Assembly (NCBI GenBank): GCA_965242725.1 | Contig: CBDESZ010000020.1 | Coordinates: forward strand, 32,001 to 96,000 | DNA from: Alkalispirochaeta sp. | GTDB lineage: Bacteria; Spirochaetota; Spirochaetia; DSM-27196; Alkalispirochaetaceae | Direction of reading: 5' to 3' | Length of the DNA stretch: 64,000 nucleotides | Shown here: positions 44,960 to 55,703 of the stretch, in pieces | Position numbering within the stretch: position 1 is the first letter of the stretch | Layout: each line of letters begins with the position of its first letter | Made by a program: the position numbers and the translations under genes | Notes under the pieces: model-generated | The model's input: the letters and a program-made list of their open reading frames with translations, nothing else | Databases searched by the model: none | What the model was told of the DNA's origin: nothing

Positions 44960-45106
44960 CGGCCGTCTCCGCGTACGGCTCAGGCGTTGTTGCCGTCGGG
45001 AGCCGGCGTGGACGTTCAGTTGAGCCGGTGCGGGTTCGGCGCGGCGCAATTACGACGGCGGCCCTTCCCCGGGGATCATTCCCCGTGATTGGAGCAGGTA
45101 AAATAC

Positions 45107-45135
45107 TTGACAGAGCGCCGGCGCGACGCTATAGT
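45107..45135 (+). promoter_or_regulatory. sigma70 promoter of the tRNA pair
   Basis: TTGACA-17 bp-TATAGT. Confidence 0.8.
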
Positions 45136-45149
45136 GCCACCGTTCAAGA

Positions 45150-45220
45150 TTCCCGGTAGTGTAATGGTAGCACCACAGATTCTGGATCTGTTTGTGGGGG
45201 TTCAAGTCCTCCCCGGGAAG
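45150..45220 (+). tRNA. tRNA-Gln(CTG)
   Basis: TTCCCGG/CCGGGAA acceptor; ACAGA-TT-CTG-GA-TCTGT anticodon arm; GTTCAAGTC T loop. Confidence 0.93.
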
Positions 45221-45226
45221 CTTCTT

Positions 45227-45299
45227 GGCCCCTTCGTCTAGTGGCCCAGGACGTGAGATTCTCATTCTCAAAACAGGGGTTCGATTCCCCTAGGGGCTA
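45227..45299 (+). tRNA. tRNA-Glu(CTC)
   Basis: GGCCCCT/AGGGGCT acceptor; TGAGA-TT-CTC-AT-TCTCA anticodon arm; GTTCGATTC. Confidence 0.93.
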
Positions 45300-45302
45300 T
45301 TC

Positions 45303-45334
45303 AGCCGGCAGTCATCGTACTTGCCGGCTTTTTT
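45303..45334 (+). terminator. Rho-independent terminator after the tRNAs
   Basis: AGCCGGCA...TGCCGGCT stem followed by a T run. Confidence 0.8.
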
Positions 45335-46287
45335 TATCTCGTTTGCGACCGTTTGAGTTGTCGGAGATAGAATGTTTCACCCCGGTATTTCTTTTCAAGG
45401 AGCTGCCCCGAGCTGATCAGGTCATCGACCAGCGACCAGGGATTCCCGCCTTTTGATACGAGCCGAACCATGTCGTCCCGGCGTACCGGGTGCACGGAGG
45501 TTATGGCGAGAATACCGTCGGCAACGTTGTCGCCGGTATTGAATTCCCCTTCTTCGTGGGTCACATTCAGTTCCGTCTTGATACCGCCGTCACTGAAGGT
45601 ACGATATGCGGTGAGGATTTCCTGTTCGTCCGGTGGTTCAACCCACGACTCGGCGGGAGGGCGTGTCGGAATTGAGAGGTATGCAATATCGGGAGCGATT
45701 TGTGCGATCAGGCGTGCCAGCGCACTCACCTGTTCCGTTGTCGTGTTGAGACCTTTTACAAGCATCGTCTCCGTTGCAAAAACGCCTTGGTAACGTCGCC
45801 GGAACTCTATGATCCCTTCAATGACGGTCCGGTAGTCAAGGGACCGGGAGGGGCGGTCAATCAAACGCCATGTGTGTTCATCGGCGGCATCGATCTTCAC
45901 GGAAACCCAGTCCGCCTGTGCTACAGCCGCCGTGACTTCCGGCTTGAAGAGGAGGCTTCCATTGGTAATGACCGCGCAGCGGACATCGCTTTCTTCACCG
46001 ATTCCCTGTAGGAGGGAACCAAGGTTTGTGTCGAGGGTCGGTTCCCCGTCGGGTACGATCGTGACGTAATCAACTCCGTTCTCGTCGCCGTCGTCACGAA
46101 GGACGCAAAGAACCTCGGAAGCCACGTCCACTGGGGCATAGAACTCCTGCAGTTCCGTCGTGACCCGTTGCGGCGCGCCAAGCTGGCAGTAGACACATGC
46201 GTAACTGCAATATTTTGGAGGGATATTGTTGACGCCGAGACTACGTCCCAACCGGCGTGAAGGTACGGGACCATAAATATATTTCAT
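45334..46287 (-). CDS. Radical SAM protein
   Basis: YGPVPSRRLGRSLG, CSYACVYC, DGEPTL, ITNGSL, RPPAE. Confidence 0.88.
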   Translation of the reverse strand: MKYIYGPVPSRRLGRSLGVNNIPPKYCSYACVYCQLGAPQRVTTELQEFYAPVDVASEVLCVLRDDGDENGVDYVTIVPDGEPTLDTNLGSLLQGIGEESDVRCAVITNGSLLFKPEVTAAVAQADWVSVKIDAADEHTWRLIDRPSRSLDYRTVIEGIIEFRRRYQGVFATETMLVKGLNTTTEQVSALARLIAQIAPDIAYLSIPTRPPAESWVEPPDEQEILTAYRTFSDGGIKTELNVTHEEGEFNTGDNVADGILAITSVHPVRRDDMVRLVSKGGNPWSLVDDLISSGQLLEKKYRGETFYLRQLKRSQTR

Positions 46288-46377
46288 TATACCATAATTG
46301 TAGTTCACCGGCGGCGGCTATGAAAGGGGCGCTTCGACTCCTCCGTCCATGCCGGCGCGTCTACAGGGTATCCAATA

Positions 46378-46446
46378 CCGGTTCAACCCCGAATTGTTAC
46401 GGTTCAGGCTACTCGTCCGGGCCGCGACGGATGGAGGACGTACAAT
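46378..46446 (+). promoter_or_regulatory. LytTR-type direct repeat operator and -10 element
   Basis: CGGTTCA at 46379 and 46400 (21-bp period); TACAAT at 46441 with no recognisable -35. Confidence 0.7.
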
Positions 46447-46478
46447 GGCCCAACACATTTTCCAAGGAGGATTGTTCG

Positions 46479-47552
46479 ATGAGACGAAACAGCATAGTAC
46501 TGTTCCTGATTCTCACTGCGACGCTTGCCTTTGCGTCGGGAACCCAGGAAGGGGCGGCGGCGGACCAGCCGGAAGAACGGGAGCTTGTGGTATACAGCAC
46601 CATATTTGCTGAATATGCCGAAGCGATGAAAGAGGGATTCGAGGCACTTCATCCCGGTGTCACCGTGCATGTACTGAACCCCGGTGGAACCGAGGCGATG
46701 TTCATGAAACTGGAGTCGGAGCGTGAAAATCCCCAGGCCGATGTCGTTCACGCCGGGTCCATGATCAACTACCAGAATGCGGTAAATCTGGGGCTTCTTG
46801 AACCATATGCGCCTCAGGCGCCGGGCTTTCAATCCTCCATCCCGGTTGGTGACGGGCAGCTGAACCTGAGTCATCCCGAAGACTACTACCACGTATGGTC
46901 GTTGATGTTTACGGGCATCATGTACAACCAACAGGTATTGGACCGATACGACCTCCCCGTACCCCGGACATATCAGGACCTGGCAAATCCCGTCTATAAG
47001 GACCAGATCATCAGTGCCGATCCCCTGAAGTCTTCCACCGCCAGCTCCAACGTCATGGCGATGCTGCAGATATATGGGGATGACGCTCCCCAACTCTGGG
47101 CCGGCATCAATGAAAACCTTCCGTATTACTCCGGATCGAGCTCTCGGATTTACACGCTTGTGAGCAAGGGTGAATTTGCCCTGGCGATCGGTCTCTCCCG
47201 ACCGGCTCTCGTGGCGATGCAGGAAGGCTTTCCCGTGGACTTCGTTTTTCCCGCCGACGGAAGTCAGATTTACGACAACTCCATGGGTATCGTCGCCGAC
47301 GCGAAGAACCCCGACCTCGCCAGAGAGTTTGTTGATTTCATTCTCAGTGACGAGATGCAGTTGAAGGGGTCGGAGTATCTCTACATTCCCGTTAAGTCCG
47401 GCGTCATCGATCCGTCGCTGCCGTTCAGTCTGGAAAGCGCCACCGCGGAGATAGGTACGATCTACTCCCCGGATCCGCAACTTGCGGACGAAAACCGGCA
47501 GCTCATCCAGGATACCTTCGGCGAGTACATTCGCAATAAAGGCACCCAATAA
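46479..47552 (+). CDS. ABC substrate-binding protein (Fe3+/AfuA/phosphonate-like family)
   Basis: Signal peptide FASGTQE, LVVYS, ENPQADV, GLLEPY, DPLKSST, AREFVDFILS; AGGAGG RBS. Confidence 0.85.
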   Translation: MRRNSIVLFLILTATLAFASGTQEGAAADQPEERELVVYSTIFAEYAEAMKEGFEALHPGVTVHVLNPGGTEAMFMKLESERENPQADVVHAGSMINYQNAVNLGLLEPYAPQAPGFQSSIPVGDGQLNLSHPEDYYHVWSLMFTGIMYNQQVLDRYDLPVPRTYQDLANPVYKDQIISADPLKSSTASSNVMAMLQIYGDDAPQLWAGINENLPYYSGSSSRIYTLVSKGEFALAIGLSRPALVAMQEGFPVDFVFPADGSQIYDNSMGIVADAKNPDLAREFVDFILSDEMQLKGSEYLYIPVKSGVIDPSLPFSLESATAEIGTIYSPDPQLADENRQLIQDTFGEYIRNKGTQ

Positions 47553-47573
47553 TACGCAGCCTTTGTGAAGGTT

Positions 47574-47637
47574 CGCGCCGCTTGCCTGCTGGTCGGTCCG
47601 CTCCGGCGGCTGCCGGCGGGCACGGCGCGCTATTTTT
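47574..47637 (+). other. Long GC-rich stem-loop after the binding-protein gene
   Basis: CGCGCCG..TGCCTGCTGG.....CCGGCGGGCA-CGGCGCG followed by CTATTTTT. Confidence 0.5.
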
Positions 47638-47652
47638 ACCTATACGGAGCAC

Positions 47653-49293
47653 ATGATGCGACTTTCTGTTTCACGTTCCTGGTTTTTTGTAGCCTATGCG
47701 GTGGTTACGATCCTGTTGGTGGCATTTCTTGTCGTACCCATCGGAAAGCTTTTTACCGGATCCTTTTCGATCGTTGCGGATCAATCACGGCCGCTTCCCG
47801 ACGGCTTTTTTCTCTACATGCTGCGGGTTACCTGGAATACCATCCGCATGGCTATGACAACGACAATTTTGTCGGTACTGATAGCCCTGCCGTTGGCATT
47901 CATGATCGTCAAGCTGCAGATACCGTCTGCGGGCGTCTTTCTCGGACTGCTCTCGGTTCCCCTCATTACGCCTGCGTTTATTTCCAGCTTTGCCACAATC
48001 ATCCTGCTGGGGAACAGTGGTGTGATTACCATGTTTTTCCAGTTGCTTGGTTTTGACCCGAAGACCATATACGGTTTCCGGGGGCTTGTTGTCACGCAAG
48101 TGCTTCACGCAATGCCCTACGCCCTGCTGTTGACCATTTCCGGCCTCAAGACGGTACCCCGTCATTTGGAGGAGGCGTCAATTTCGCTGGGTCACGGTGT
48201 GCTGAAAACACAGTTTTCCGTCGTGCTGCCCTATATCTTTCCTCATATACTCATGGCGGCGCTCATGGTCTTTTTGACCTCCATGGGCGATGTCGGCGGG
48301 CCCCTTATCATCGGCGGCAGCTACAAAGTTATCTCCACGGAGATCTATGCAAACTTCGTCACCTACATGGGAGACGAGAGAATACCGATCATCTTTGGTG
48401 CGTGGACGCTGCTTCTCTCGTTCATACTCCTTTTCATCGTGAATAAGCTGATGAAACTGACGGAAATAAAACACAAGTTTCGCCTCGGGATCATGACCTA
48501 TGACCACCGGCGGGCGCGTCGTGGTGCGACGGCGGCACTCGTGGTCGTCACATTTCTCTTCCTTGCCCCCTATATTGCGATCATCGTCCAGTCATTCGGT
48601 ACAATCTGGGCGTACGACTGGCTTCCCCGGGCGTTCACCGTGGACAACTATGTCACCGCCATTAAGGACTTTCACGCCATACGAAACACGATGATTCTCC
48701 TGGTGACGGTCACGCCGATCATTATCGTCGCAAGTGTCGTGTTTGCCCACATGTTCAAGAACCGGCGGGAGCTGGCGTGGATCAATTATATGACGCTGCT
48801 GCCCTTTACCATTCCCGGCGTCATCATTGCCGTGAGTCTCCTCCAGACCTATGCCGGCGTATCGCTGGGACAGCACGATCTCATTGCCACGATCTGGATT
48901 CTCATTATCGCCATCAGCATCAGGCGGCTTCCATTTGTCCTCAAGGTCATCGAGGCGGGCTTTTCGAAGATAGATGACTCACAACGGGAAGCGGCGTTCA
49001 GTCTGGGCGCATCGGAAGGCAGGACGTTCTTTTCCGTTATTCTGCCCCAATTGAAGCCGGCCATTTACACCGCTCTCGTCATAGGTATGATCAAGGTCGT
49101 TACCGAACTGTCGTCCAGTCTGATGCTCAACCCTCCGGGGTGGAGAAACATGTCACTGTATATCGCCTATTATGTGGAAGAGGGATTCATTGCCCGCGCG
49201 TCAGCCATGGGCATTCTCTTGATCATCATCGTCGGGATCGGAACCGCCGTATCCAACACACTTCAAAAGAGGGAGGCACAGCGTAATGGCTGA
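47653..49293 (+). CDS. ABC permease with two BPD_transp_1 domains (FbpB/AfuB-type)
   Basis: Two EAA loops (LEEASISLG; QREAAFSLGAS). Confidence 0.9.
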   Translation: MMRLSVSRSWFFVAYAVVTILLVAFLVVPIGKLFTGSFSIVADQSRPLPDGFFLYMLRVTWNTIRMAMTTTILSVLIALPLAFMIVKLQIPSAGVFLGLLSVPLITPAFISSFATIILLGNSGVITMFFQLLGFDPKTIYGFRGLVVTQVLHAMPYALLLTISGLKTVPRHLEEASISLGHGVLKTQFSVVLPYIFPHILMAALMVFLTSMGDVGGPLIIGGSYKVISTEIYANFVTYMGDERIPIIFGAWTLLLSFILLFIVNKLMKLTEIKHKFRLGIMTYDHRRARRGATAALVVVTFLFLAPYIAIIVQSFGTIWAYDWLPRAFTVDNYVTAIKDFHAIRNTMILLVTVTPIIIVASVVFAHMFKNRRELAWINYMTLLPFTIPGVIIAVSLLQTYAGVSLGQHDLIATIWILIIAISIRRLPFVLKVIEAGFSKIDDSQREAAFSLGASEGRTFFSVILPQLKPAIYTALVIGMIKVVTELSSSLMLNPPGWRNMSLYIAYYVEEGFIARASAMGILLIIIVGIGTAVSNTLQKREAQRNG

Positions 49294-50377
49294 AATCGTG
49301 ATCGATAATCTACACAAGTCTTTCGGCAACACCGAAGCCGTCCGGGGATTGTCCATCAATATAGAAAAGGGAGAACTCGTATCACTTCTTGGACCATCGG
49401 GGTGCGGGAAGACGACCCTGCTCCGGCTCATCGCGGGGTTTGAGACACCCACGGCGGGTAACATCTTTCTCCGGGATCGTAATATAACTGAAATTCCGCC
49501 GCAAAAGCGGAATATCGGGATCGTCTTTCAGGACTACGCCGTATTTCCGACGATGAACGTCTTTGACAATGTAGCATATGGTCTACGGATACGAAAGCTT
49601 TCGAGAGAGGAAATTACCGACCGGGTTCAGGAGTATCTGGAACTTGTCGGACTGACGGGATATGAAAAGCGCCTGCCCTCACAGTTGTCCGGCGGGCAGC
49701 AGCAACGGGTCGCCCTTGCCCGGGCGCTTGTCATCAAGCCGGATGTTCTCCTTCTCGATGAACCGCTTTCCAACTTGGATGCGGCCCTCCGCCTGAGCAT
49801 ACGCAAGGAGATACGGAAAATTCAGCAGTCCCTGGGAATAACGACCGTCTTTGTCACCCATGATCAGGAGGAGGCGCTCTCCATTTCAGACAAGGTCTTC
49901 GTCATGCGATTGGGCGAACTGATGCAGGGGGGAGGACCTCAGGAAATATATCGAATGCCGCGAAACGACTTTGTCGCCGGCTTCATCGGCAAGTCCAACA
50001 TCCTCTACGGGCGATTGACCGACCGGGAAGGGGGGCTTTCGCGGATCACGGTGGGTGATACGACCTTTACGACCGCATTGGGAGAGGACATACCTGCGGG
50101 CAGCGATGTATGGGTCTCCGTCCGGCCCCAGTACATCAGGATGAACCACCAGGCACCGAAGGACGCGCCCAATCAAGTATCAGGCGTCATTACCTATATC
50201 GAATATCTCGGAGGGGTTGTCAAAGGAGAAGTTTCCGTATCAGATGACCTGATCCTGGAGTTCGAGCAGCCCATACAGGGCAATGACGGATCGGCACTCC
50301 GACTTCGCGACAACGTGACCGGTGTCGTCGACGTACGGGATATTGTGGTGGGGAGAAACATGAGACGCCTTGATTAG
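49286..50377 (+). CDS. ABC ATPase (PotA/FbpC-type)
   Basis: GPSGCGKT, LSGGQQQR, LLLDEP, VTHDQEEA, C-terminal TOBE-like region. Confidence 0.95.
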   Translation: MAEIVIDNLHKSFGNTEAVRGLSINIEKGELVSLLGPSGCGKTTLLRLIAGFETPTAGNIFLRDRNITEIPPQKRNIGIVFQDYAVFPTMNVFDNVAYGLRIRKLSREEITDRVQEYLELVGLTGYEKRLPSQLSGGQQQRVALARALVIKPDVLLLDEPLSNLDAALRLSIRKEIRKIQQSLGITTVFVTHDQEEALSISDKVFVMRLGELMQGGGPQEIYRMPRNDFVAGFIGKSNILYGRLTDREGGLSRITVGDTTFTTALGEDIPAGSDVWVSVRPQYIRMNHQAPKDAPNQVSGVITYIEYLGGVVKGEVSVSDDLILEFEQPIQGNDGSALRLRDNVTGVVDVRDIVVGRNMRRLD

Positions 50378-53075
50378 GCTCCGACGACTCTATAGATATC
50401 TCATTCTCGTCCCGCCGGTGATTCTCATCGGCGGGTTTCTCGTCTTACCCCTGGCAAGACTGCTCGTTCACGGATGGACCGCAGCCATCACGATCAGGGA
50501 ACCGTTGCCCCCCTTTGTATGGCCACACCTCGTCTATGTCACGAAAAACACCTTTATCATGGGCGGCTTGACGACGCTGTTTTCCCTCACCGTCGCGCTC
50601 CCGGTCGCCTTCATACTTGCAAAGACCGACCTTCCGGGTCTCCGTTTCTGGCCCGGGCTGCTCACTATCCCCATGATTTCACCCCCTTTCATCATGGCCT
50701 TTTCCACGCTGCTGCTCTATGGGAGGAGCGGTGTACTGTCCTCACTCTTTCGTGAATGGCTGGGAATCAACCTTCCCCATATATTCGGTCTGCCCGGGCT
50801 CGTACTGACCCAGCTGGTCGTATCGATACCGTACGCCACGTTTATTCTCATGGCGGGGTTCAGGGGCATTCCCAGGCACGTTGAAGAGTCGGCATACGCG
50901 GTGGGCTCGCCGCCGATGCGCGTCTTTTTTGACGTCCTATTGCCGTGTATCTATCCCCATTTGATTATCGCCGGGCTGATGGTTTTTCTCATGTCCATCG
51001 GCGACGTCGGTGGTCCGCTGATTATCGGTGGTGGATATCCCGTCATCGCATCGGAAATCTACAGCAATTTCCTTTCAGTATTGACTGACGATCGCATTGC
51101 CGTAATCCTCGGGTCCTGGATCATCATTCTCTCGTTTTTAATGGTAGGCGCGGTGAATATTCTCCTTCGGTTTACGGTAAAGCGATATCGTCCGGGTTCC
51201 GATCCGGTGGTGTACAGACTGGGCCGTCGTCGCCCGCTTGCGCTCGTTTTTGTCGGGGCGGTCGTCGTTTGGCTGCTTCTGCCCTTTCTCATGGTCGTCG
51301 TCCAGTCTTTCGGCACGATCTGGACCGCCGAGCCGATTCCCCGGGGATGGACCCTGGACCATTACGTTCGTGTCTTTCAGGCACCCGGACTTGTGGTCAA
51401 TACGCTGGTCCTTGCCGCGGTGGTGACGCCGGTAATCGTCGTGATAAGTATCATTCTCGGCCATTCCCTGAACATCAGACGGGGACGAAAAATCCTCAAC
51501 GTCCTCATGGTCCTTCCTTTTTTGCTGCCCGGAGTCGTGTTGGCGTTGGGTGTGGTCGAAACGTATGCGACGCTCTTTGCTCACATGCGGACGATTCCCG
51601 TTTACGGGCTCTTGGCGGGGACGGTGATGATACGGCGCCTGCCATATACGTTAAAAACCCTTGAAGCGGGATATCTCGTGACGGACCGTCGTCGTGAGGA
51701 ATCCGCTACCAGTCTGGGGAGTTCACCGTTGGCCGCGTTTCTGAAGGTTACCCTTCCACAAATGCAGCCCTTCCTGCTGGCGGCATTGGTTATCGGTTTT
51801 ATAAAAGTCGCCACGGAACTGTCTGCGTCACTCATCCTCGCACCCCCCGATTGGCAAAGTCTTTCCATGGGAATCGTCTATTACATTGAACAGGGACAGC
51901 TCGGTCGCGCTTCGGCGATGAGCGTCGTGCTGGTCGTCCTCATCGGAACCGGCACTTTCACCGTGATGTACCGCCTTCATGGCGCGCGGGGTTATGAAGG
52001 CAATGACGGCGATCAGCGTGATCGTGAACACCTGCGGTCGGATGACGCTCTGGAAGGCATCGTTCTCGGTCGGACACCGGTGATCGTACCGACACCAAAC
52101 CGGGGAAGAACCGGCATTGTTTCCGTGCGGCCCGCCTGGGGCCGATGGGAGCCCCGGCTCGTGGTGGACTCCCGTTATGGGATCGTCGATGCGAGCAGGG
52201 GATTCCTGCGGCTCGTCGGCGCCTCCACCGTCGATGAATTGAAACGGGAGGGTCGTTTCTCGGTTCTCTTCTTCAGTGACCGTACGTTACTGGAGATATT
52301 CTCCACGCGGGAGGCGGTGCAGGAGCGGGCGACATCGATCATGACCCTGTCGGGAGCGCGTATCCCCGTCATCGTCTACGCCAATGTGGTGGAACGGGAC
52401 CAGGGTGATGTCATAGGATATTTTTACTGTCGCCGCGTCTCCGGGCGCTCGCGCCGTCTCCGGGAGTACCGACGTCTCAGGGATCGTATGGCTACGGCTG
52501 AACAGGAAATACTCAAGGCGCAGATCACCCCGCACCTCCTCTTCAACACCCTCAATAACATCGCCCACATGATAGGAGAGGAGCCTGAGGAGGCGCGGGA
52601 TGTCGTTCAGAGTCTGGCGGACCTCTATCGATATACCCTTGCCGCCACAAAGAAGGAGCTCGTGCCCCTGGCGGATGAGGTGGAGACGATTCGGCGCTAT
52701 CTTTCCATAGAGAAAGCGCGTTTTGGCGAGCGCTTGACGTGGCAGATCGACGTAAAGCCCGCCGCACAGGGCGTCTGGATTCCACCGATGATATTGCAGC
52801 CTATCGTCGAAAACGCCGTCACCCACGGCGCCGACGAGAGGGGCCGGATCCGGGTGGATGTTGTTGTCGCAAGGAGCGGTGATGATATCGTCATGTCGGT
52901 GAGGGACCACGGAGCTACCCCCTTTGACGAGGAAGCTCTCGTTTCCGGGAGCGGTACGGGATTGCGTAACGTGGAGGGACGTCTCTATGCGCTGTATGGG
53001 CGGCATCTGCAATTTGAACGATTCCCTGATGGTGGACTGAGGGTAATTATGACCCTGCCGGAACGGAAGGAATGA
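50370..53075 (+). CDS. ABC permease fused to a PAS-like linker and a LytS/YehU-type histidine kinase
   Basis: aa ~1-535 two-domain permease (VEESAYAVG; REESATSLG); then KAQITPHLLFNTLN (His722), EKARFGERL, LQPIVENAVTHG, VRDHG, SGTGLRNV; one open frame. Confidence 0.88.
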   Translation: MIRLRRLYRYLILVPPVILIGGFLVLPLARLLVHGWTAAITIREPLPPFVWPHLVYVTKNTFIMGGLTTLFSLTVALPVAFILAKTDLPGLRFWPGLLTIPMISPPFIMAFSTLLLYGRSGVLSSLFREWLGINLPHIFGLPGLVLTQLVVSIPYATFILMAGFRGIPRHVEESAYAVGSPPMRVFFDVLLPCIYPHLIIAGLMVFLMSIGDVGGPLIIGGGYPVIASEIYSNFLSVLTDDRIAVILGSWIIILSFLMVGAVNILLRFTVKRYRPGSDPVVYRLGRRRPLALVFVGAVVVWLLLPFLMVVVQSFGTIWTAEPIPRGWTLDHYVRVFQAPGLVVNTLVLAAVVTPVIVVISIILGHSLNIRRGRKILNVLMVLPFLLPGVVLALGVVETYATLFAHMRTIPVYGLLAGTVMIRRLPYTLKTLEAGYLVTDRRREESATSLGSSPLAAFLKVTLPQMQPFLLAALVIGFIKVATELSASLILAPPDWQSLSMGIVYYIEQGQLGRASAMSVVLVVLIGTGTFTVMYRLHGARGYEGNDGDQRDREHLRSDDALEGIVLGRTPVIVPTPNRGRTGIVSVRPAWGRWEPRLVVDSRYGIVDASRGFLRLVGASTVDELKREGRFSVLFFSDRTLLEIFSTREAVQERATSIMTLSGARIPVIVYANVVERDQGDVIGYFYCRRVSGRSRRLREYRRLRDRMATAEQEILKAQITPHLLFNTLNNIAHMIGEEPEEARDVVQSLADLYRYTLAATKKELVPLADEVETIRRYLSIEKARFGERLTWQIDVKPAAQGVWIPPMILQPIVENAVTHGADERGRIRVDVVVARSGDDIVMSVRDHGATPFDEEALVSGSGTGLRNVEGRLYALYGRHLQFERFPDGGLRVIMTLPERKE

Positions 53076-53076
53076 C

Positions 53077-53988
53077 ATGGAAAGACCGGTCATACGTATT
53101 TGCATTATTGACGACGAATTTCGTGCCCGGCGGCGCATCGCACATCTCCTTGAGGCCGAGAAACGGTGCACGGTGGTAGGCGAGGCCGATAACGGCGGAG
53201 ACGCCGTGGAACTGATCGACCGGGAAAAGCCGGATCTGGTCTTCCTCGATATACGCATGCCCGGCCTGAGCGGGTTTCAGGTACTGCAGCGAGCTCTTCA
53301 CCGTCCCGCGGTAATATTCGTCACCGCCTACGACGAGCACGCCGTACAGGCATTTGAAGTTCACGCGGTGGACTACCTGCTCAAGCCGTTTCCGGACGAA
53401 CGATTTCGTGATGCCCTTAGGCGCGCGACGGAACGCGTGTGGCCGCCGTCGGGATCCGATGCGGCCGCACACAATACGGCAGCGTCCAATATCGCCGGCG
53501 ACGAAGAAACTGACGGGCTCGTGCCGGCGTTGGCGGGCGGCGTGGGCGAGGCGCTCCTTGCGGAGCTGCAGCGGCTGACATATGGCCCCGACCGGCGCAC
53601 CGCGGAGGACGGCAACGCAGTTCGGGAAGCGGAAACGGGACATCCCGTACTGGAACGTGTCCCGGTACGCCGGGGATTTGAATTTGAAATGGTACCCGTG
53701 GCCGGCGTTGACTACTTCACCGTTATCGACGGTCTCGTTTTTCTCGTACGGGACGGACGACGAGTCGTTGTAGACCATACGCTCTCAGAGCTGGAATTGC
53801 GGCTCGACGCTCGTAAATTCATGCGGGTCCACCGCAAAAGCCTGGTGAATATCAATAGGGTCGAACGCGTGGTGCCCTGGGGGCGTGGCCGCATCGCCCT
53901 CCATTTCACTGGTGAAGAAGAAGCGGAGCCCGTACACGTCGGTCGGGACCGCACCCAGGAAGTGAAGAGGCGTCTGGGAATCCCCTGA
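53077..53988 (+). CDS. LytTR family response regulator
   Basis: IDDE, LVFLDIRMPG, FVTAYDEHA, DYLLKP; LytTR domain TLSELE..L..FMRVHRKSLVN. Confidence 0.95.
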   Translation: MERPVIRICIIDDEFRARRRIAHLLEAEKRCTVVGEADNGGDAVELIDREKPDLVFLDIRMPGLSGFQVLQRALHRPAVIFVTAYDEHAVQAFEVHAVDYLLKPFPDERFRDALRRATERVWPPSGSDAAAHNTAASNIAGDEETDGLVPALAGGVGEALLAELQRLTYGPDRRTAEDGNAVREAETGHPVLERVPVRRGFEFEMVPVAGVDYFTVIDGLVFLVRDGRRVVVDHTLSELELRLDARKFMRVHRKSLVNINRVERVVPWGRGRIALHFTGEEEAEPVHVGRDRTQEVKRRLGIP

Positions 53989-54041
53989 CGTGAACCCCGA
54001 AAACCTTGTTTTCATCGGTATGCTGCAGGTACTATGCATCC

Positions 54042-55703
54042 ATGAGCAGCCGGCCGGAACACCCCTTCGATGTCTACTATAAACGCGGATGGATCTATGT
54101 TGTGGTTCGTCCCGGCGAAGGGGGTGCGGAGGCCGTGCGGCCACCGGTTTATCCCGAGGACATTGAAAACCGCATGCGCCTTCTGGGAATGCCGAAAGTT
54201 CGATCGGGCGTGCTCCTCCGCCTCATCGACGAAGCGACGGGGGAGGCGGAGCGCCTTGTAAAGTGGCCGGAAGGCGAGCGCCTGGCTTCACGCATCTCCG
54301 TGGCGATATCGGACGATGAGATGAGCGCTTCCATTTCAGTAACAAAACCGCGTCGGGGCGCCGTCGGCCCCGACAGGGAAGACATCCTCAAGGCCCTTGA
54401 CGCCGCCGGTGTGACATTCGGAATCGATGAGGATGCAATCGCCGAGTTTCTTGCACACCCTCGTTACGACGAAAAGACAACCGTCGCCGTCGGAGGCGAG
54501 CCCGTATCCGGATCGGCACGCCGCGTGGAATACCGCTTCAAAGTGGATCGGGGAAAACCGTACCTCCAGATGCCCTTTGACCGCATCAACCTGCGGGAAC
54601 TGAACTTTGTGGACAACAGGAAAGAGGGTGACGTTCTCGCTGTTCTCCTTCCTCCCGTGAAGGCGAAGGACGGGAAAACGGTCACGGGTACCACCATTCC
54701 CGCCGCTACCGACGAGACCGTGGTGATCCTCCCGGCGGGAGAAAATACCCGCCTTGACGAGGAGGGGACCGAACTCATCGCCGCCTGTGACGGGAATGTC
54801 CGTTTTCACAACGGACTGGTGATCGTGGAACCGGTAATCGAGGTGGAGAACGTCAATTATGAGACGGGAAATATTCACTTTGACGGATCGGTGGTTGTTG
54901 CGGGAAGCGTCGCCGACGGCTTCATCGTGGAAGCGGGAGGATCTATACAGATCGGACGGGGCGTCGGACGGGCGCAACTCCGGGCAGGCGAAAATATACT
55001 CCTCACCAGCGGCATGAACGGAAACGGCGAAGGTGTTCTCGAGTGCGGCGGAAATCTCTTTGCCCGGTATATCGAGAGTGCGACGGTCCGGTGCAAGGGC
55101 AACGTTCTTGTCGAAGAGGCGATTCTCCACTCGACAATCACCGTCTGGAATCACTGTATCCTCAATGGACGACGGGCGGAGTGCATCGGCGGTGAGCTCA
55201 TTGTCGGAGGAAGTCTCTGGTGCCGGAAGCTGGGTAATCGTAACGACGCACAGACCCTCGTCGCCATCGGCGTTCCGCCGGAACTCTTTGAGGAGTACCG
55301 CACCGCCCGGGGAGAGCTGGACGCCAAGGAGGATGAGGTGGAAGAACTTGAAGAAAAACTCCGCCGCATAGAACGGGCGATCGACGACGGCAGGACCGAT
55401 GAAAAGTACCTTGCCGCCCGGGAGCAGCTGAGGATAGATCTCGCCCGGGAGGGCGTCCAGATCGACGTCCTGCGTCGCCGAGTGCCTGCTCTACGGGATC
55501 GCCTTGATCCGACTACGGCGAGTTTTGTCGTCGCCGAGGAGACAATCTTCAACGGCGTCACCGTCACCTTCGGTAAACAGGAGTATCGCGTGCCCCAGAC
55601 GGGCACCCGGAAGGCACTTCTCCACGTCACCCGTGACGCCATCAAGGTGGAAGGATTCAACCGCCAGACACCACCCAAAATCGAGTTTACCCTGCCGGTG
55701 TAG
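54042..55703 (+). CDS. FapA/DUF342 family protein
   Basis: AGVTFGIDE, GKTVTG, AGENT, NVNYETGNIHFDGSV, CIGG. Confidence 0.85.
   Translation: MSSRPEHPFDVYYKRGWIYVVVRPGEGGAEAVRPPVYPEDIENRMRLLGMPKVRSGVLLRLIDEATGEAERLVKWPEGERLASRISVAISDDEMSASISVTKPRRGAVGPDREDILKALDAAGVTFGIDEDAIAEFLAHPRYDEKTTVAVGGEPVSGSARRVEYRFKVDRGKPYLQMPFDRINLRELNFVDNRKEGDVLAVLLPPVKAKDGKTVTGTTIPAATDETVVILPAGENTRLDEEGTELIAACDGNVRFHNGLVIVEPVIEVENVNYETGNIHFDGSVVVAGSVADGFIVEAGGSIQIGRGVGRAQLRAGENILLTSGMNGNGEGVLECGGNLFARYIESATVRCKGNVLVEEAILHSTITVWNHCILNGRRAECIGGELIVGGSLWCRKLGNRNDAQTLVAIGVPPELFEEYRTARGELDAKEDEVEELEEKLRRIERAIDDGRTDEKYLAAREQLRIDLAREGVQIDVLRRRVPALRDRLDPTTASFVVAEETIFNGVTVTFGKQEYRVPQTGTRKALLHVTRDAIKVEGFNRQTPPKIEFTLPV

Follow-up and report, generated by a model that had tools for sequence, protein, structure and literature searches.

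A candidate sensory ABC importer permease fused to a LytS-type histidine kinase in Alkalispirochaeta and related spirochaetes

In the 64,000-nucleotide stretch of Alkalispirochaeta sp. DNA analyzed here (assembly GCA_965242725.1, contig CBDESZ010000020.1, positions 32,001 to 96,000; hereafter the window), an operon for an ATP-binding cassette (ABC) importer contains an open reading frame (ORF) in which a second copy of the importer permease continues into a LytS-type histidine kinase. This permease–kinase fusion is real and conserved across genomes. We think it fairly likely that it acts as a dedicated sensor for the importer of the same operon, in a series of steps that would lead from docking of the substrate-binding protein (SBP) to a positive regulatory loop.

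Results

One reading frame joins an importer permease to a histidine kinase

The fusion ORF (50370–53075, plus strand) starts with TTG and encodes 901 residues. Pfam finds within it two BPD_transp_1 domains, His_kinase PF06580 (residues 710–789) and HATPase_c (808–899), in agreement with the domain set expected from an earlier, sequence-only reading of this DNA. That reading had also taken the N-terminal part for a paralogue of the upstream permease, and residues 1–537 (50370–51980) indeed share 41% identity with it over 501 residues (E 3e-122), compared with just 24–29% for the remaining FbpB-like permeases of the genome. With two BPD_transp_1 halves, both EAA loops (E173/G179 and E444/G450), the gate motifs GDxG and TEL and an FbpB fold, this putative sensor domain has the features of a type I ABC importer permease. 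A Pfam match to PF07694 (5TM-5TMR_LYT) is absent from the fusion, the input region being BPD_transp_1 instead. Residues 710–901 (52497–53075) comprise a LytS-type dimerization and histidine phosphotransfer (DHp) domain with H722, encoded by the CAC codon at 52533–52535, and an ATPase domain (N815, D846, G862/G864); the H-box and the N, G1 and G2 boxes are all present, as in LytS-type PF06580 kinases.

All five ORFs of the operon lie on the plus strand and are separated by short gaps or overlap. The fusion is preceded by genes for an AfuA/P5PA-like SBP (46479–47552, 357 residues, Pfam SBP_bac_6), a transport permease of the FbpB/PhnU2 type with two internal halves (47653–49293, 546 residues), which is the slower-evolving of the two permease copies, and an ABC ATPase (49286–50377, 363 residues) with intact Walker A, Q-loop, LSGGQ, Walker B and H-loop. 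This is the sole ATPase gene in the operon. The adjoining response regulator of the REC-LytTR type (53077–53988, 303 residues) carries D12/D13, K104 and the phospho-acceptor aspartate D58. Gene order and ORFs are as first described, and the motifs quoted at that time are all present in the translations. The regulator of the window is longer than in all other loci, where it has about 250 residues, and has a long low-complexity linker between its receiver and LytTR domains.

An AlphaFold2 model of the fusion (mean predicted local distance difference test score, pLDDT, 70.9) places twelve membrane helices before a disordered linker with a helix at 557–565, an alpha/beta domain of PAS order at 596–689, a coiled coil and the kinase. 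Residues 557–568 (52038–52073), a conserved helix after transmembrane helix 12 (TM12) with the consensus ALERLVLGR, are a candidate coupling element, and E562 and R568 are invariant in 19 aligned fusions. The following segment (residues 594–690, 52149–52439) had been called PAS-like. This assignment stands as far as the strand and helix order of the model goes, and sister kinases that align over fusion residues 594–899 carry PAS matches in Pfam; the window fusion itself has no scoring Pfam match there, and a divergent subfamily of fusions is without the domain. In Foldseek, the best match to the model was the FbpBC importer 9j4r (TM-score 0.83 by target), followed by PAS/LOV kinases, while an ESM Atlas search gave only generic kinase clusters (0.80–0.82) and was uninformative. 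Contigs from four of four sequencing runs bridged the permease–kinase junction without differences; all runs are from one sample, possibly the window's own source.

The fusion and its gene order are conserved

A protein search gave 187 matches. Among the best 120 of these, 17 other clusters carry PF00528, PF02518 and PF06580, covering 96–100% of the length at 50–77% identity, and one further cluster carries PF00528 and PF06580 at 38% identity. An exhaustive search added divergent fusions (P0124, P0125, P0129, P0133 and P0134). At the level of DNA, we examined 16 loci from genomes and 45 from metagenomes. The fusion ORF is complete in 8 and 17 of them, respectively, with some contigs represented twice. 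The ATPase gene directly upstream and the LytTR gene downstream of the fusion are found in all 25 of these other loci, and 23 loci are long enough to show the order SBP–permease–ATPase–fusion–regulator. In L006 and L025 the transport permease is split into two ORFs, and the partial locus L016 has the order fusion–regulator–SBP.

Pooling of 49 full-length rows left 36 distinct fusion proteins of 787–917 residues, which bears out the expectation that the architecture recurs in other genomes and shows that its homologs are not always split into two genes. Both EAA patterns, the H-box and G1 are kept in 36/36, and the N and G2 patterns were matched in 35/36, the remaining fusion having conservative variants. 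The PAS-sized linker is missing in 9/36 fusions; the domain is thus dispensable, and the input would therefore be the permease domain.

The possibility that two neighboring genes were joined by an assembly artifact or by chance read-through is excluded by the conserved full-length family. A few broken forms might speak for it: every gene of loci L037 and L039 carries a frameshift, P0283 is apparently truncated, and six matches turned up among short proteins; for few of these cases was the underlying DNA available. The short matches start at scattered internal positions and not at the permease/kinase boundary, and the 36 full-length fusions come from independent assemblies, including an isolate-type genome record of Pleomorphochaeta sp. 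(L003). The bridged junction in the four runs also argues against an artifact.

Named carriers belong to the Spirochaetota (Sphaerochaetaceae, Treponemataceae, Spirochaetaceae), plus one unclassified bacterium and one contig labeled Candidatus Shapirobacteria. The latter (L012) is a short, permease-only contig of 3 kb whose permease nests among spirochaete sequences, and it is possibly misbinned. The closest named locus is from an Alkalispirochaeta metagenome-assembled genome (SBP 88%). The system is rare: in a sample of 400 other genomes of the phylum, there was no match at E 1e-60. In 98 other genomes of the order, nine matched at 1e-50, namely one close partial fusion, two permease-only sequences and six sister kinases.

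Direct repeats at the operon promoter

On the plus strand, ahead of the SBP gene, the window holds two copies of a direct repeat, ACCGGTTCA at 46377–46385 and, 21 bp after it, TACGGTTCA at 46398–46406, which are putative LytTR binding sites. A probable −10 element, TACAAT (46441–46446, plus strand), lies downstream of the repeats; there is no consensus −35, which would fit an activator-dependent promoter. De novo motif search upstream of the SBP genes gave this direct repeat (9-nt copies with the consensus TCCGGTTCA, a period of 21 bp and a 12-nt spacer) at 101–123 bp before the ATG in 14/14 core loci, three of which (L011, L015, L054) were assigned by their SBP/permease clade, with contigs that end before the fusion. 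Leave-one-out scores were 12.9–27.8 and no shuffle of 100 scored as high; among unfused loci, 1/13 reached that significance, with a low score of 9.1. Ten divergent fused loci have a different 21-bp-period repeat of their own, with 20 bits per sequence versus 13 for unfused loci.

In a scan of the window's genome, using a matrix from which the window and its nearest relative had been left out, the window repeat was the top site (26.9, next 22.8), and no other upstream site was convincing enough to indicate a wider regulon there. In five other genomes, matches with one mismatch were near control level, and the only exact match, found in four of the five, was the operon promoter, the pattern having been derived from those same promoters. 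A sigma-70 and terminator scan performed at chance level and called no sigma-70 pair on the plus strand at the repeat region. LytTR operators consist of 9–11-nt repeats with 11–13-nt spacers (PMC4847170) and sit near position −60 (PMC4227749). With 9-nt copies and a 12-nt spacer, the window repeats fit this format. Because the repeats occur in all core loci and form the best site of the genome, the LytTR regulator probably induces its own importer operon, which lends support to the induction of the transporter supposed in the sequence-only reading.

Periplasmic loops and a docking model

The fused permease differs in its pattern of conservation from the transport copies, with 70 near-invariant columns versus 218. 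Taking as a test set the 218 columns that are near-invariant in 12 transport permeases, we found that the fused copies keep best the periplasmic segments 211–240 and 482–510 (0.71 versus 0.51 at transport-conserved sites). None of 5000 random draws was as high for 12 taxa, and p was 0.004 in the five core taxa; the segment limits were taken from the model at a time when the alignment had been inspected but no complex predicted. In a predicted complex, SBP and fused permease scored 0.72, the best of three controls 0.00, on a scale whose docking mark is reached by 116/157 solved pairs and 2/215 mismatched pairs. Runs agreed in at least 90% of contacts, with partner pLDDT of at least 82, and the modeled interface on the fusion includes residues 217–239 and 488–511. 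SBP–permease complexes have been solved already, so the model score may reflect likeness more than binding. Loop conservation and complex model both support the docking of the SBP that had been proposed for the fused copy.

Origin of the fused permease

In an IQ-TREE analysis of 31 permease rows, fused permeases and their cognate transport permeases form one clade (support 100/100), with the permeases of unfused SBP–permease–ATPase operons outside, and the fused permeases branch from within the clade of cognate transport permeases. The picture of a duplicated, dedicated sensory copy attached to an intact kinase is supported.

Mean corrected distances over 17 complete operons (136 pairs) were 0.39 for the SBP, 0.45 for the transport permease, 0.26 for the ATPase core, 1.17 for the fused permease and 0.96 for the kinase, which puts the evolutionary rate of the fused permease at about 2.6 times that of the transport copy. 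Its ratio of nonsynonymous to synonymous substitution rates (dN/dS) is low, at 0.045–0.135 (7/9 pairs with measurable dS). It is therefore under purifying selection and not a decaying remnant, yet subject to different constraints. One transport permease (L031:6822-11373) nests among fusion-bearing operons with no fusion downstream and no repeat upstream; here, sensor and operator were probably lost together.

The kinase domains of the fusions group with kinases of about 680 residues and TM-(HAMP-like)-PAS architecture (SH-aLRT 98), a group in which the fused kinases do not form a clade of their own. In the same genome (C26:63016-70409, L093), the gene for a sister kinase of the TM-(HAMP-like)-PAS LytS type lies between an SBP_bac_1 gene and a LytTR regulator gene, the latter followed by genes for the TRAP transporter subunits DctP/Q/M. 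The TRAP promoter, ahead of dctP, has a perfect repeat of 21-bp period, TCGCCGTTC. The periplasmic region of the sister kinase family (P0140, P0153, P0183 and others) has no Pfam match. We suggest that an SBP-linked PAS-LytS/LytTR module controlling nearby transporters swapped its periplasmic sensor for a permease duplicate.

Cargo of the binding protein

By sequence, profile and fold, the closest solved relatives of the window SBP are AfuA, VcA0625 and P5PA, all binders of phosphate esters, which rank above all FbpA entries. Homologs carry an automatic iron(III) label. In a comparison with the FbpA iron-ligand set, an alignment showed no tandem tyrosine at the site of the window SBP equivalent to AfuA H205/D206. 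Fe3+ was rejected as cargo on the basis of these neighbors and the pocket residues, and the iron(III) label is unsupported. When the P5PA ligand residues listed in PMC8427247 are mapped on the window SBP (T37 to T71, S147 to S185, G148 to S186, T149 to T187, S183 to S220), all five phosphate-binding positions are Thr or Ser, namely T71, S185, S186, T187 and S220. The ring-binding residues Y103 and H203 of P5PA map to S141 and R241, so the ring-binding set is not shared. S186, S220 and R241 are invariant in 33 SBPs. Hence, the cargo probably is a phosphate ester or another phosphorylated anion. Candidates are a sugar phosphate, a sugar-acid phosphate or a compound like pyridoxal phosphate, perhaps a sugar-acid phosphate.

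Flanking genes were dropped as a substrate clue, as they are not conserved among fused loci. The surroundings of one unfused relative (L052:1-10635) include genes resembling those for pyridoxamine-pyruvate transaminase, FHMPC dehydrogenase, a class II aldolase and subunits of the xanthine oxidase family; by its gene content, this cluster probably serves vitamin B6 catabolism and includes a dedicated ABC importer. With just 33% identity to the window SBP and a different pocket, the SBP of this relative gives no more than a lead, and vitamin B6 was set aside as cargo. Molybdoenzyme genes also lie beside L055 and L027. Another unfused relative (L049:147-6155, SBP 48%), located between an RpiR regulator and phosphogluconate dehydrogenase, is a candidate importer of 6-phosphogluconate or a sugar phosphate.

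Genomic surroundings

About 1 kb upstream of the cassette, past a divergent radical SAM gene (45334–46308), the window encodes tRNA-Gln(CTG) and tRNA-Glu(CTC) at 45150–45300. Because the distribution of the system is patchy, this pair is a possible integration site. The GC content of 46001–50000 is 53–55%, and an Rfam scan of 45000–55000 found the two tRNAs only and no riboswitch. Elsewhere in the genome (C25:409951-416786), another FbpABC-type operon is divergent from an unfused PF06580-type kinase and a response regulator, a conventional counterpart.

Discussion

Proposed mechanism and its alternatives

As a working model of the dedicated sensor, we suggest that the permease gene was duplicated in place and that a (PAS)-LytS-type kinase module took over one of the copies as its input domain. 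The SBP, loaded with a phosphorylated anion and not with Fe3+, would dock on the fused permease in the same way as on the transport copy, and the single ATPase of the operon probably also docks, on the retained EAA loops. The sensory unit could then switch from the inward- to the outward-facing state, moving little or no cargo. TM12 and the conserved helix that follows might transmit this movement via PAS domain and coiled coil to the dimeric kinase, where H722 would phosphorylate D58 of the LytTR regulator. The regulator would bind the repeats of 21-bp period and activate the operon, a positive loop that translates substrate availability into importer synthesis. An FbpB-type permease works as one chain, and a histidine kinase must dimerize; the signaling unit would therefore hold two permease copies. 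More tentatively, and somewhat less probably in our estimate, a complete importer unit of SBP, permease and ATPase might have been turned into an ATP-powered receptor. A single SBP and a single ATPase would then be shared by a permease for uptake and a second permease, whose alternating-access movement the covalently attached kinase dimer would read mechanically.

Several results weigh against parts of this proposal. For coupling to the ATPase, the EAA loops of the fused copies are conserved at average level only (0.53, p 0.33). Their pore helices are likewise average (0.48, p 0.81) and give no sign that transport was lost. In type I importers, residues for both gating and docking lie in the periplasmic loops. 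Since the conserved loops make up the periplasmic gate as well, their conservation is not specific to SBP docking. Over the 29 transport-conserved residues of the modeled interface as a whole, conservation was not significant (p 0.11), and fusion and own transport permease of the window share less identity at the interface (0.35) than elsewhere (0.40), the core clade being no closer at the interface. In the divergent subfamily, the same comparison gave higher identity at the interface (0.39–0.53 versus 0.24–0.33). The core repeat matrix is weak in divergent fused loci (2/10 at p<0.05). Finally, the 12 fused rows stand on one side of a branch with a support of 36/65, and the FastTree phylogeny of 100 permease rows needs two changes, so that a single origin is neither established nor rejected.

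The average conservation of the EAA loops next to preferentially conserved periplasmic loops would fit a receptor that works without the ATPase. The fused permease would then be a docking platform for the closed, liganded SBP, as in HptS or XylFII-LytS but with a permease fold, and the EAA loops would be structural. It also agrees with the sister kinases of the clade, which are periplasmic-sensor proteins beside an SBP gene with no ABC ATPase. Still, EAA motifs are found in all 36 fusions, even at 28% identity of the permease domain, the ATPase gene is always adjacent, and it is mainly their ATPases that drive the conformational changes of type I permeases, so that we regard an ATPase-free receptor as unlikely. 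Doubts are greater for a fully transporting flux sensor, in which the fusion would be a second working permease and the kinase would report turnover like BceAB-BceS, but covalently. Such a role is consistent with the complete 12-helix FbpB fold, with the gate motifs and both EAA loops, and with pore helices that are not significantly more decayed than average. Nevertheless, wherever a locus extends far enough to tell (L016 and truncated contigs do not), the slower-evolving transport permease is found beside the fusion, and many residues invariant in transport copies vary in the fused ones, as the counts of near-invariant columns show.

A permease that serves only as membrane anchor or scaffold is very improbable. 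In this case, the kinase would sense a cytoplasmic signal via its PAS domain or be repressed by the transport complex, and the PAS domain is indeed conserved in the core clade (dN/dS 0.03–0.08). Yet fusions that lost it keep the operon, and an anchor would not need twelve helices that are kept under purifying selection and have conserved periplasmic loops. The dedicated sensor for the operon's own importer hence remains the reading that we prefer.

Relation to known systems

Sensors derived from transporters have been recruited from several folds. UhpC is of the major facilitator type, and CbrA combines a secondary-carrier (SLC5) fold with a STAC linker and no SBP or ATPase. Like the fusion, CbrA/CrbS have a transporter domain fused to a kinase, and the fold differs (SLC5/STAC versus type I ABC permease). 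PstSCAB-PhoU-PhoR is reported to be an ABC transporter that controls a kinase inducing its own operon, with a non-covalent link and a working transporter. The SBP of a two-component system (6lkg), which we take to be HptA, is among the structural neighbors of the window SBP.

The CbrA/CrbS SLC5-STAC kinases are also mentioned in PMC11109136. Closest in design is Ks-Amt5, a fusion of an ammonium transporter and a histidine kinase (PMC5764959, PMC8534201), in which, as here, a whole transporter domain was covalently joined to a kinase and recruited as sensor. Unlike the fusion permease, which would need a separate SBP and probably an ATPase, the Amt domain binds its ligand directly. In the BceAB-BceS/BceR flux sensor (PMC8534201), an ABC transporter likewise controls a kinase that induces its own operon; however, the interaction is non-covalent, with a working transporter, a two-helix kinase and a BceB-type permease, in contrast to the duplicated covalent copy, the LytS-type kinase and the LytTR regulator seen here. 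SBPs are known to stimulate receptors (PMC9602780). In HptA-HptS (PMC8534201), as proposed here, the liganded SBP is the primary receptor; there it docks on the periplasmic domain of the kinase, whereas here it would dock on a membrane permease. XylFII-LytS (cited in PMC9602780) is also an SBP-dependent kinase, with docking on a periplasmic sensor domain instead of a permease fold. The LytS/LytTR systems BtsS/YpdA (PMC11109136) resemble the fusion by their PF06580 kinase, LytTR regulator, direct-repeat operators, transporter-related membrane sensor and induction of a transporter, and the 5TMR sensors of LytS kinases share the fold of energy-coupling factor (ECF) S components (PMC11109136). Unlike these, the fusion is without 5TMR, and its putative sensor, a type I permease of 12 helices, has a clear paralogue in the operon. 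The AfuABC/P5PAB importers (PMC8427247) include the closest solved SBPs and share the phosphate-binding set. They are only about 24–26% identical to the window SBP, their ring residues differ, and the available part of PMC8427247 reports no fused kinase.

In titles, abstracts and text passages of the open-access literature, we found no description of an ABC-permease–kinase fusion, in line with the sequence-only reading, which knew of no characterized case. In the part of PMC2853384 where BPD_transp_1 is mentioned, it appears in a count table with no such fusion. Judged by its sequence, the fusion is a transporter-derived kinase with a fold, the type I ABC permease, that we have not found reported as a sensor.

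How a kinase reads the conformational cycle of an ABC importer, as in PstSCAB-PhoR and BceAB-BceS, is a long-standing question, hampered by the transient nature of these multi-protein complexes. Here, permease and kinase are in one chain, the transport paralogue next door offers a control, an operator is predicted and an isolate-type carrier (L003) is on record. If our proposal is true, the covalent chain would be a single-chain model for importer conformations signaling to kinases, in which mutants of SBP, ATPase, EAA loops and gate could show whether binding, ATP hydrolysis or flux is the signal. It would extend the range of folds that serve as kinase sensors by the type I ABC permease and suggests a biosensor design in which importer permeases are grafted onto kinase modules. 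For some spirochaetes, the fusion probably represents a new wiring of transport to gene control, by which the cell senses the cargo of an importer and switches on the importer genes.

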